From IMG/VR virus record IMGVR_UViG_2537562092_000002, positions 1 to 37,884 of that record: a stretch of 37,884 bases of DNA, one strand, 5' to 3'. This stretch comes from a virus. Taxonomy: Duplodnaviria; Heunggongvirae; Uroviricota; Caudoviricetes. A program made the translations under genes and the position numbers. How positions within the stretch are numbered: position 1 is the first letter of the stretch; the number at the start of each line of letters is the position of its first letter. Positions 8,772 through 9,829 of this stretch are shown here, one piece after another. The notes below the pieces were generated by a model. The model worked only from the letters and a program-made list of their open reading frames with translations. It had not been told where the DNA came from and did no database searches.

Positions 8772-8808
8772 CCACAGCACGTTCTTGCATACAACGTGCC
8801 TGCGGTTT
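8772..8808. repeat. Hairpin-forming repeat, copy 1 (upstream of the GIY-YIG gene)
   Basis: ccacagcacgttcttgcatacaacgtgcctgcggttt; about 33/37 identical to 9793..9829; inner stem gcacgtt/aacgtgc. Confidence 0.6.
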
Positions 8809-8945
8809 TTGAGACCGGTCCGATCATCAAACGAAACATAAAATTAGCTCACACTATGAGGAAAAGTATCTTTTTTTACTATGTAAATTCAAAGGATTAG
8901 CCTCATTTACCCGATAGTTTTCTCAACACTACTGGTTGTGAGCCC

Positions 8946-9770
8946 TTGCAATGTTCATTAATATACGTCTCACAAATAATTCATAGATATTGCAAAATGG
9001 ATATTACTGAGTTTCCTTCTGGAGTAATTGAACACCTTGGCTGGTATGTATACCGATTGATTGATCCGAGGGACGGAAGCACCTTCTATGTAGGGAAAGG
9101 CAAAGGTAACCGCGTATTTGCCCATATGCGCGGTGAAGTGGCAGCGACTGATGATGACGAGTTACTGAGCAACAAGCTAAAGCAAATTAGAGAAATAAGG
9201 TTAGCAGGACTTGAGGTTATCCATGTCATCCATCGACACGGAATGACTGATGAAAAGACGGCGTACGAAGTTGAAGCAGCACTTATTGATGCCTACCCTG
9301 GGTTAACGAATATCATGAATGGTGCTGGCAGCAATGAATTCGGCGCCGCGCATGTCAAAGAGTTGATAGCAACATATCAACCCGAAACCATAACATTTCA
9401 TCATAAAGCATTAATGATTTCCGTTAACAGAAGTGCAAAGGATTCAGAGCTTTATGATGCGGTTCGATTTAGCTGGCGCATTAATGTCTCTCGCGCCAGC
9501 CAAGCAGAAGTCATTCTTGCTACTGTAAGGGGGATCGTTCGAGGAGTTTTCATTGCTGATAAATGGCTCAAATCAACACGTGAAAATTTCCCTACGATGA
9601 AATACTGGGACGAAGATCCTGACTTTGAGGCAACACAAAGTTCTCGCTATGGTTTTGAAGGTCGAGAAGCCCCACCTAAAATAGCAAATCTTTATCTTGG
9701 AAAAAAAATACCAGATGAATTAAGAAAAAAAGGAGCTATGTCCCCGGTCCGTTACTCACCTAATTTTTGA
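8946..9770 (+). CDS. GIY-YIG nuclease-domain protein (start may be the internal Met near 8994)
   Basis: N-terminal [33 protein letters not shown] is a GIY-YIG catalytic motif; ~200-aa C-terminal region unassigned. Confidence 0.55.
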
Positions 9771-9792
9771 GTCTTTAAGTGATAAGCATAAA

Positions 9793-9829
9793 CCGCAGCA
9801 CGATCTTGCATACGACGAGCCTGCGGTTT
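9793..9829. repeat. Hairpin-forming repeat, copy 2 (between the convergent GIY-YIG and invertase genes; possible bidirectional terminator)
   Basis: ccgcagcacgatcttgcatacgacgagcctgcggttt; outer stem aaccgcag/ctgcggtt; direct repeat of 8772..8808. Confidence 0.55.

Follow-up and report, generated by a model that had tools for sequence, protein, structure and literature searches.

Why does a GIY-YIG nuclease gene near the end of a prophage lie between two copies of one hairpin, and does the whole move as a unit? In the window analysed here (the entire stretch of 37,884 nucleotides), the hairpin-gene-hairpin arrangement is real but ordinary, because the gene has already been characterised and the hairpins are a common boundary sequence. 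Our best explanation, to which we assign a probability of roughly 0.7, is that the gene is a defence 'moron' in a cargo hotspot next to the attachment (att) site, shuffled by recombination at a putative terminator-like boundary element, and not a self-mobile cassette. The relevant features are as follows.

6606 to 6668, no strand assigned: left att repeat (3' part of tRNA-Thr), the prophage end nearest the cassette; a perfect 63-bp direct repeat with 36424-36486.
7316 to 8362, minus strand: S1/trypsin-like serine peptidase, a cargo gene of the same att-proximal island (Pfam Trypsin_2, E=1.7e-17).
8615 to 8771, plus strand: left ~157 nt of a conserved non-coding boundary element, a ~195-nt unit ending in hairpin copy 1 (alignment of 46 distinct copies).
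8772 to 8808, plus strand: hairpin copy 1, the 3' end of the boundary element, followed by a T-run on the plus strand (repeat search, folding, pattern scan).
8803 to 8822, plus strand: 20-nt tRNA-Ser attachment-site relic with the anticodon-arm sequence CGGTTTTTGAGACCGGTCCG, the left edge of the cassette (identity to tRNA-Ser).
8809 to 8996, plus strand: 5' untranslated/promoter region of the cassette, always co-inherited with the gene and beginning ATCATCAAACGAAACATAAAATTAGCTCAC... after all left-junction classes.
8997 to 9770, plus strand: gene matching PD-T4-3/CMoRE, 257 aa, a type IV modification-dependent GIY-YIG restriction endonuclease (PADLOC, Pfam and PDB 9U75 matches).
9793 to 9829, plus strand: hairpin copy 2, lying where the PD-T4-3 and invertase genes converge, preceded by A-rich and followed by T-rich sequence.
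9829 to 10419, minus strand: Pin-type serine DNA invertase gene (Pfam Resolvase, E=5.6e-50, and HTH_7; annotated pinE in related genomes).

The two hairpins do bracket the gene. A repeat search recovered them as direct 37-nt repeats, 33/37 (89%) identical and 1021 bp apart, and a degenerate 29-nt pattern hit these 2 sites alone in the 37.9-kb window, against 0.00 expected from 100 dinucleotide shuffles. Both copies can fold into a stem-loop with a 6-bp outer stem (CCRCAG/CTGCGG), an inner stem and, between the inner-stem arms, a 9-nt loop, CTTGCATAC; copy 2 has two A-A mismatches in its inner stem. Folding energies over 57-nt windows ranged from -14.6 to -22.9 kcal/mol, with modest z-scores (-1.1 to -2.7). 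The imperfect direct repeats of about 33/37 that the first-pass annotation saw around the GIY-YIG reading frame are therefore borne out. Its spacing holds on the right, where copy 2 starts 22 nt past the stop codon (about 25 bp had been claimed), and its last base falls within the stop codon of the convergent invertase gene. The ~140 bp claimed on the left was counted from a TTG at 8946, 137 nt from the end of copy 1; from the true ATG at 8997 the distance is 188 nt.

The bracketed gene adds nothing new in itself. By its sequence it is PD-T4-3/CMoRE, a known type IV endonuclease for DNA containing 5hmC or glucosyl-5hmC. The product matches the PADLOC PD-T4-3 model (PDLC04031) at full length (E=7e-140, residues 1-256 covering positions 1-255 of the 256 in the model) and Pfam LEM-3_GIY-YIG at aa 28-110. 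It aligns end to end, C-terminal modification-sensing domain included, with chain A of PDB 9U75 (query 1-257, chain 6-262; E=1.3e-171, 6 mismatches), so that along its full 257 aa it is ~98% identical to the CMoRE crystallised from E. coli O157:H7. The start is ATG 8997 (MDITEF...), which matches residue 1 of the crystallised protein, and not TTG 8946. The translation contains the GIYxY-YIG motif as defined in PMC12923530 (G15-W-Y17-V-Y19 ... F30-Y31-V-G-K-G, with Y17/Y19/Y31) and the acidic autoinhibitory loop (A48-T-D-D-D-E-L). Biochemistry, structures and in-host deletion phenotypes of PD-T4-3/CMoRE have been published (Vassallo et al. 2022, PMC9519451; Nat Commun 2026, PMC12923530; PDB 9U75, 9U7U), and near-identical alleles cleave 5hmC/5ghmC DNA and restrict T-even phages (PMC9519451; PMC12923530). 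The window allele is the same protein with only six substitutions, nothing of substance, and would be expected to do both. Its C-terminal domain would sense 5-hydroxymethyl- or glucosyl-hydroxymethyl-cytosine and its N-terminal GIY-YIG domain would degrade such DNA, so that the lysogen would restrict T-even phages. It is thus one more copy of a defence enzyme with published structure and mechanism (2026). The prophage-end context and flanking hairpins are undescribed in PMC9519451 and PMC12923530, and the word 'prophage' occurs 0 times in the latter. A simple scan called no promoter upstream of PD-T4-3. By eye, TTGTGA-N17-TAATAT, ~35 nt upstream of the ATG, may be a weak candidate.

The prophage is integrated at tRNA-Thr and bounded by the 63-bp att repeat. 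The right att copy (36424-36486) overlaps an intact tRNA-Thr(CGU) at 36441-36516 and is adjoined by the integrase gene (35263-36426); the gene flanking the prophage belongs to the aldehyde-dehydrogenase family (proA-like) and is not icd. The tRNA-Thr repeat and the proA-like neighbour rule out e14, to which the first-pass annotation had linked this prophage, as does K-12 e14 itself, whose pinE-mcrA junction contains no hairpin or boundary element. The companion proposal, that a restriction-like defence gene fills the place of e14 mcrA between the invertase gene and the prophage end, is supported, PD-T4-3/CMoRE being functionally analogous to McrA. Both are type IV modified-cytosine restriction genes between a pin invertase gene and an att site. 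They differ in prophage and site (icd for e14, tRNA-Thr here) and in having unrelated nuclease folds, McrA being an HNH enzyme and the window gene GIY-YIG. The O157 prophage with PD-T4-3 is likewise at tRNA-Thr. The peptidase gene at 7316-8362 is annotated as an S1 family peptidase at a 99.8%-identical locus of strain DX6, and PADLOC models match its product in the protease domain only.

The hairpin is a widespread prophage boundary element that mostly occurs without PD-T4-3 and is not specific to this gene family. Across the 46 aligned copies, drawn from different contexts, conservation begins ~195 nt before the hairpin end; the right-hand ~100 nt recur in thousands of E. coli genomes as well as in HK97 and Stx phages. 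Of 5,426 E. coli genomes, no fewer than 3,113 match, at a median of 1 place per genome. Only 758 of the same genomes have the PD-T4-3 gene, and none of the 122 phage records matching the element, HK97 and Stx phages among them, has it. The element lies between the attachment site and tail-fibre/invertase genes, beside left neighbours from more than 25 unrelated gene families; the 165 catalogued hairpin copies have sharply defined edges and at least ten different right neighbours. Three loci (L007, L013, L060) are multi-module cargo arrays with same-orientation element copies between modules. The first-pass annotation named a counter-reading, a common REP-like or terminator element with no link to this gene family, and most of it stands; the exception is that the element is restricted to prophages rather than REP-like. 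Like REP/BIME sequences, it offers a short imperfect palindrome at gene ends in repeated copies. REPs, however, number in the hundreds across the chromosome, whereas this element has a maximum of 7 places per genome, 2 copies in the 37.9-kb window, and a range confined to prophage cargo ends in Escherichia/Shigella; we rejected a REP-like repeat on these counts.

The hairpin would most likely act as a transcription stop between convergent or adjacent units. Copy 2 had been taken for a bidirectional terminator against the invertase gene. Its position favours this: it sits exactly between two convergent genes, and, being A-rich before and T-rich after, is terminator-like on both strands. A terminator consensus scan of 8300-10500, on the other hand, called none, owing to the 9-nt loop and the short T-runs (TTTTT after copy 1, TTTCATTTAT after copy 2). 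The commonest downstream hairpin variant carries stem mismatches, and covariation in the hairpin falls short of significance, with one compensatory pair (26/500 shuffles). A plain terminator has no need of a conserved loop sequence such as is seen here, though shared descent can account for it. As a stop, copy 2 would end the transcripts of both PD-T4-3 and pin, and copy 1 would block read-through from the left.

A different role for the same sequence, which we consider improbable, is that the ~195-nt element is a phage ncRNA gene, or the 3' UTR or retroregulatory region of an integrase transcript, with hairpin 1 as its terminator and PD-T4-3 merely landed beside it. It is a strongly conserved non-coding unit that ends in a hairpin and T-run on one strand only, and in HK97 (directly after sib) and locus L111 it lies downstream of int in the same orientation. 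Most left neighbours, however, are not integrases, and no conserved promoter was called. Between 6000 and 11000 of the window no Rfam family matches at E<=1, and a 205-nt fold of the element is no better than shuffles (z=-0.64) and, like the covariation result, gives a structured RNA no support. A diverged 3' part of tmRNA was also discarded: the Rfam tmRNA match in L007 reaches 17.6 bits against a gathering score of 47 and is driven by an adjacent exact ssrA T-arm/acceptor core, and local alignment of the element to ssrA shows no significant similarity (score 17.0, shuffle mean 17.1). A literature search gave nothing specific on the element sequence or on a lambdoid tail-fibre/att hotspot.

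Empty sites define the cassette as a discrete insert. In six loci a single hairpin aligns to both window copies beside a pin gene 93-98% identical, and relative to these sites the insert measures 1021 bp; single-hairpin sites without the gene, which the first-pass annotation had suggested seeking, are thus present. In HK97 the left flank, a single hairpin and the final codons of pin remain.

The left edge of the cassette is the relic of a tRNA-Ser attachment site, and it overlaps the last 6 nt (CGGTTT) of hairpin copy 1. The locus census used Hamming scans, which can miss indel variants, so that loci were classified on the junction sequences themselves. Among the 74 PD-T4-3 loci, which come from IMG/VR prophage calls rich in near-identical E. 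coli isolates and so cannot be counted as independent events, a tRNA-Ser att half forms the left edge in 22, half of hairpin 1 in 24 and part of a full two-hairpin bracket in 24. In the first class the same position runs leftward into a perfect tRNA-Ser 3' half, and in O157 further into native zinT-tRNA-Ser intergenic DNA. On the right, a hairpin lies downstream of PD-T4-3 in 79/79 loci with four different right-hand neighbours, 15 loci being tfa-type without pin; left and right junction classes assort freely. In L007-type loci an identical hairpin copy 1 goes with the cassette and the element to its left has diverged. A restriction-modification (RM) module has one junction inside the hairpin loop. 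These junctions lend no support to the mobile nuclease cassette originally proposed: both hairpins are present in only about one third of PD-T4-3 loci, and an att-site relic forms the left edge.

We infer that PD-T4-3 is an independently expressed moron in the variable cargo region that runs from the att site to the invertase/tail-fibre genes. The two hairpins are copies of one sequence, the 37-nt end of the ~195-nt element marking that region, and the bracket would be a by-product of history. PD-T4-3 may once have lain outermost in a prophage integrated at tRNA-Ser, in the order att - gene - hairpin - pin/tfa. Its att core would then have been joined, through recombination at the microhomology CGGTTT, to the 3' edge of another phage's element and hairpin, and the resulting unit would have spread, being gained and lost by homologous recombination between repeated elements and hairpins. 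The gene's identity, the spread of the element, the empty sites, the att relic and the junction classes are observed; the order of events and the mechanism are inferred. One observation counts against this history: the hairpin 3' edge meets two att cores, the ssrA T-arm and the tRNA-Ser anticodon arm, at the stem/loop boundary, which simple illegitimate recombination does not predict.

That observation would suit a site-specific recombinase, although we think it unlikely that the hairpin and element form the recombinase site of an integron-like array, at which tRNA-arm integrases or the adjacent Pin invertase would insert and excise hairpin-bounded cargo. Tyrosine integrases cut at the stem/loop boundary of tRNA-like arms. 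The 37-nt unit has sharp edges beside many unrelated neighbours, cargo-module arrays keep same-orientation copies between modules, and the empty-site hairpins resemble a copy-1/copy-2 chimera. The arrays nevertheless lack a dedicated integrase, cargo genes lie in both orientations, many loci lack pin (the tfa-type loci), one junction falls inside the loop (the RM module), and the hairpin copies differ at 4/37 positions, unlike a fresh duplication. The reciprocal junction predicted for tRNA-Ser integrase recombination occurred in 0/5,426 genomes, and with it fell the idea that hairpin, core and cassette are the attP form of a tRNA-Ser phage. The ssrA prophage S5 has a different arm at attR, which rules out element plus hairpin as the attP arm of ssrA-integrating phages in general. 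An inverted-repeat search around the invertible segment showed no likeness between the hairpin and Pin inverted repeats, which speaks against a Pin (pix) site. Integron attC cassettes likewise have same-orientation imperfect palindromes between unrelated cargo units; here, by contrast, there is no IntI integrase (the neighbours are serine invertase or tail-fibre genes), the cargo has its own regulatory regions, and the junctions include att relics and an in-loop breakpoint.

A related and equally doubtful reading makes the element and hairpin an undescribed, dedicated 'docking' module around which a cassette array is built at the att end of temperate phages of Escherichia, with new cargo, often bearing foreign att junctions, joined precisely at the hairpin 3' edge by a recombinase or a hairpin-stimulated mechanism. 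If true, the element would be a prophage analogue of integron attC sites and not a passive terminator.

A self-mobile, homing-endonuclease-like cassette that cuts empty sites, with the hairpins as target or ends, is the least credible reading and already largely refuted: the GIY-YIG domain, the discrete insert and the several different neighbours would fit it, but CMoRE is modification-dependent with a 5hmC-sensing domain and not a sequence-specific homing enzyme, E. coli DNA is not known to contain its substrate, every locus is placed alike at the att-proximal end of a prophage, an att relic or chromosomal junction forms the left edge, and two thirds of loci lack an intact hairpin 1.

The moron reading has close precedents. 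In the concept of Hendrix and Juhala, a moron is said to be an autonomous gene, equipped with a promoter and terminator of its own, that sits inserted among conserved lambdoid genes, and Mirold et al. (2001) reportedly found the sopE moron cassette moving between phage families via conserved flanks. Like these, the accessory gene of the window stands alone with an upstream region of its own, is flanked by terminator-like hairpins, has a precise empty site in relatives and recurs in different phage backbones. Unlike them, the flank is a specific, widely shared ~195-nt element, the cassette has a tRNA att relic, and promoter and terminator are putative. Defence hotspots of P2-like phages and P4-like satellites hold variable cargo between conserved flanks at a fixed position (Rousset et al. 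2022, PMC9122126; Vassallo et al. 2022, PMC9519451). Here too, variable defence and other cargo is exchanged at a fixed temperate-phage position, but in another phage group, att-proximal beside tail-fibre/invertase genes, and with modules split by a repeated non-coding element.

The value of the locus is modest and lies in its context. More than half of complete E. coli genomes contain the ~195-nt non-coding marker, which in many temperate phages flags the variable stretch of cargo from the attachment site to the tail-fibre/invertase genes. Cargo beside it includes PD-T4-3, restriction-modification pairs, XRE/ImmA pairs, proteases, kinase-like genes and many unannotated genes, and the marker could therefore be used to mine candidate defence genes, as at the P2/P4 hotspots. 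How cargo passes between prophages with different integration sites is shown by the embedded att relics of tRNA-Ser and ssrA.

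The window carries a prophage whose left end holds a hairpin-bracketed gene. A perfect 63-bp direct repeat (6606–6668 and 36424–36486) is the 3' part of tRNA-Thr(CGU) and has a tyrosine integrase gene alongside, which therefore delimits a prophage of about 6606–36486. Beside the intact tRNA, outside the prophage, lies an aldehyde-dehydrogenase-family gene; the same site in E. coli O157:H7 (O157) is annotated proA. The left end reads att, S1 peptidase gene (7316–8362), a conserved non-coding element ending in hairpin 1, the gene PD-T4-3, hairpin 2, pin and invertible tail-fibre genes.

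Features of the prophage ends
10907–11500 (+): tail-fibre-assembly (Caudo_TAP) gene in the invertible segment
11472–11912 (-): opposed tail-fibre-assembly (Caudo_TAP) gene; the segment also carries alternative fibre C-termini
35263–36426: tyrosine integrase gene, beside the intact tRNA-Thr
36441–36516: intact tRNA-Thr(CGU)

Several other features of this DNA were noted. The expected invertible segment (10410–11912) adjoins pin; a simple inverted-repeat search did not locate its crossover sites. Adjacent tRNA-Thr(UGU) and tRNA-Asn(GUU) genes (27490–27645, -) are carried within the prophage. Outside it, a 294-nt direct repeat (2222–2515 and 2698–2991; 76% identical, 476 bp apart) overlaps the start of a DUF3987 gene (1060–2511) that is part of a second mobile element, arranged in tandem at the tRNA-Thr att repeat. 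A second cargo gene at the left end (7316–8362, -) encodes a 348-aa trypsin-like S1 peptidase whose protease domain resembles the protease modules of the PADLOC defence models RT-protease, LmuA and HamA, with a weak N-terminal match to the ABC-3C domain CTD12; this could be a defence or abortive-infection gene not yet characterised.

The bracket is as the first-pass annotation described it. The 37-nt direct repeats at 8772–8808 and 9793–9829 are identical at 33 of 37 positions and 1021 bp apart, and a degenerate form of the unit matches the window at these two copies only (0.00 expected from shuffles). Both can form a stem-loop with a 6-bp outer stem (CCRCAG/CTGCGG), a bulged C and an inner stem around the 9-nt loop CTTGCATAC; copy 2 has two A-A mismatches in the inner stem, and stability is unremarkable (z -1.1 to -2.7 against shuffles). 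The single ORF between them starts at ATG 8997, 188 nt past hairpin 1, and encodes 257 aa. Hairpin 2 begins 22 nt beyond its stop codon and shares one base with the stop codon of a convergent Pin-type invertase gene (9829–10419). The same annotation suggested that the gene might occupy the e14 mcrA-equivalent slot. The slot is apt, as McrA of e14 is likewise a type IV modified-cytosine nuclease between pin and the prophage end, but e14 identity is rejected: this prophage is integrated at tRNA-Thr, and the K-12 e14 pinE-mcrA junction, unlike the PD-T4-3/pin junction here, has no such hairpin.

The bracketed gene is itself already known, and the guess of a restriction-like defence gene was correct. 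The ORF matches, end to end, the PADLOC model for PD-T4-3, a single-gene defence system (E=7e-140), with a LEM-3-like GIY-YIG domain at residues 28–110, and aligns across all 257 residues, with six differences, to a crystallised O157 protein (PDB 9U75; E=1.3e-171). Its function is known from these matches together with published biochemistry and phage protection. Renamed CMoRE, the protein degrades 5-hydroxymethylcytosine or glucosyl-hydroxymethylcytosine DNA through its N-terminal GIY-YIG domain and recognises the modified DNA through a novel C-terminal domain (PMC12923530). Its hallmarks, a GIYxY-YIG motif (Y17, Y19, Y31) and an acidic inhibitory loop (PMC12923530), are both readable in the window translation. 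Protection against T-even phages was demonstrated by deleting the gene from a clinical isolate and by expressing it in K-12 (bioRxiv 10.1101/2024.12.20.629700). At about 98% identity, this allele probably acts likewise.

The hairpin is clearly independent of the GIY-YIG gene family. Of 5,426 complete E. coli genomes, 3,113 match region 8600–9900 and only 758 have the gene; elsewhere the match covers a ~100-bp stretch up to the end of hairpin 1, or hairpin 2 together with the end of pin. The ~100-bp stretch also occurs in 122 phage records (HK97, HK106 and many Stx phages), none with the gene. A gene-specific hairpin is thus unsupported. The first-pass annotation had named as its refutation a common REP-like or terminator element spread genome-wide without association to this gene family; the lack of association is confirmed, but REP-like repeats are rejected because copies are too few (median 1, maximum 7 places per genome) and confined to prophages. 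The exact hairpin pattern, sought in about 185,000 species representatives, is confined to Escherichia/Shigella.

Empty sites and multi-module arrays reveal a cargo island. In six comparison loci from other phages and prophages (L092, L095, L099, L108, L110 and L113), the left flank (8618–8808) and right flank (9793 onward) meet at one hairpin, with pin 93–98% identical to the window's. These are precise empty sites for a discrete 1021-bp insert, the single-hairpin relatives that the first-pass annotation had proposed to look for. One further locus (L091) runs from tRNA-Thr att through ~230 bp, element/hairpin and pin without cargo, and in HK97 the stretch from sib to tfa still holds the left flank, a single hairpin and the final codons of pin. 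Some loci, by contrast, contain three copies. In L007, closely related to the window, an extra module of ssrA-core relic, Bro-like gene, XRE/ImmA pair and second element with hairpin lies between the peptidase gene and PD-T4-3. A restriction-modification pair takes that position in L013-type loci, and another XRE/ImmA pair does so in L060. The region is therefore an island of units separated by element copies. A mobile nuclease cassette finds no support.

The repeated unit has defined edges. Conservation starts ~195 nt before the hairpin end (window ~8615–8808; alignment of 46 distinct copies). Across 165 catalogued copies the 37-nt edges are sharp, with at least 10 different right neighbours directly after GCGGTTT, including the pin stop codon, the end of a tail-fibre-assembly gene, the PD-T4-3 cassette (gene with its 5' region) and the ssrA 3'-end att core. 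To the left usually lies the conserved element, and beyond it more than 25 unrelated gene families (integrases, ImmA, S1 peptidase, kinase-like, nuclease-like and chromosomal genes among them). Searchable literature yielded no description of the flanking element, which appears undescribed, yet of a known kind: a moron or module boundary.

We consider it a putative terminator-like boundary element that also supplies homology for module exchange, with a probability of roughly 0.6–0.7. Copy 2 separates the stop codons of two convergent genes and is preceded by an A-rich and followed by a T-rich run. In element-associated copies, only the strand read from the att/int side bears a T-run, and in HK97 and L111 the element is downstream of int in the same orientation. 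This position points to a putative transcription stop, on evidence that is so far weak; a consensus scan called no terminator. In the hairpin alignment 92% of cells pair, against 45% or less with the partner slid, while one pair only shows compensatory change and covariation measures fall inside the shuffle range. Common variants carry mismatches. Three extra loop nucleotides (CTT) and a C-A mismatch mark the commonest variant downstream of PD-T4-3, whereas in one lineage of L030/L048-type loci (TCGTAG...CTACGG) the outer stem has switched from C-G to T-A, a compensatory change. The structure is thus only loosely maintained. An RNA role for the element is a minority reading: Rfam has no family for it, its whole-element fold gives z=-0.64, and similarity to ssrA does not extend beyond the adjacent att core. 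The whole element is not a recognisable RNA.

Junctions of PD-T4-3 loci record exchange between prophages. All 79 loci in IMG/VR have the downstream hairpin, followed by pin (56), tfa (15), a degenerate ssrA core (7) or other sequence (1). Left edges, counted on 74 loci with enough upstream DNA, comprise the element with full hairpin as in the window (24), restriction-modification DNA running into hairpin 1, of which just the 3' half is present (24), a perfect tRNA-Ser 3' half in place of hairpin 1 (22; tRNA identity confirmed) and other disruptions (4). Left and right classes combine freely. All left classes share GGTTTT(C/T)GAGACCGG, the tRNA-Ser anticodon arm, and then the same cassette 5' region; the window keeps a 20-nt relic of this att core (8803–8822), joined to hairpin 1 in the shared hexamer CGGTTT. 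Because native zinT-tRNA-Ser intergenic sequence lies left of the tRNA half in O157, the tRNA-Ser form is a genuine chromosome/prophage junction made at that gene, with PD-T4-3 the outermost phage gene. In O157 it now sits inside a prophage at tRNA-Thr, which implies exchange between prophages with different integration sites. The captured junction is seen in O157:H7 ATCC 43889 (L004 3840–4020 and L132 2353–3363), at the end of a degraded prophage at tRNA-Thr/proA.

The simplest history we infer is one illegitimate or microhomology join, which would have brought another phage's element-hairpin to the tRNA-Ser att core, with later spread, gain and loss through homologous recombination between repeated elements. 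The 3' edge of the hairpin falls exactly on the 5' stem/loop boundary in two different att cores, the ssrA T-arm (GCGGG/TTCAACT) and the tRNA-Ser anticodon arm (CCGGT/TTTCGAG), a boundary where tyrosine integrases cut. Integrases acting at secondary sites, illegitimate recombination stimulated by the hairpin, or microhomology by chance may explain the coincidence. A site-specific recombination role for the hairpin or element is a minority reading. In the one ssrA prophage with attR read, the arm is a sequence other than the element. That hairpin, core and cassette themselves form the attP of a tRNA-Ser phage is rejected, as the predicted reciprocal tRNA-Ser junction is absent from all 5,426 E. 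coli genomes.

Related junctions and neighbours recur elsewhere. The restriction-modification pair, a type II restriction endonuclease and Dcm-like methyltransferase (L003 2375–4010; L013 915–3639; L093 10227–12951), joins the cassette inside the hairpin 1 loop (...TTCATAAATTAAC/GCATAC...) in 24 of the 74 loci. Many phages have a hairpin that leads straight into the last ~25 nt of ssrA (T-arm and acceptor) and then ssrA-downstream-like DNA, an ssrA att junction embedded in prophages integrated elsewhere (L007 1105–1163 and ~25 other copies, e.g. L093, L097, L102; L003 860–920; L131 37100–37160). Large unannotated proteins lie directly beside the element in L102 (7762–11013) and, left of the element, in L054, L080, L099 and L097, with sizes of 1083 aa, 478 aa (kinase-like), 461, 432 and 326 aa; these are possible undescribed defence genes, minable with the element as marker.
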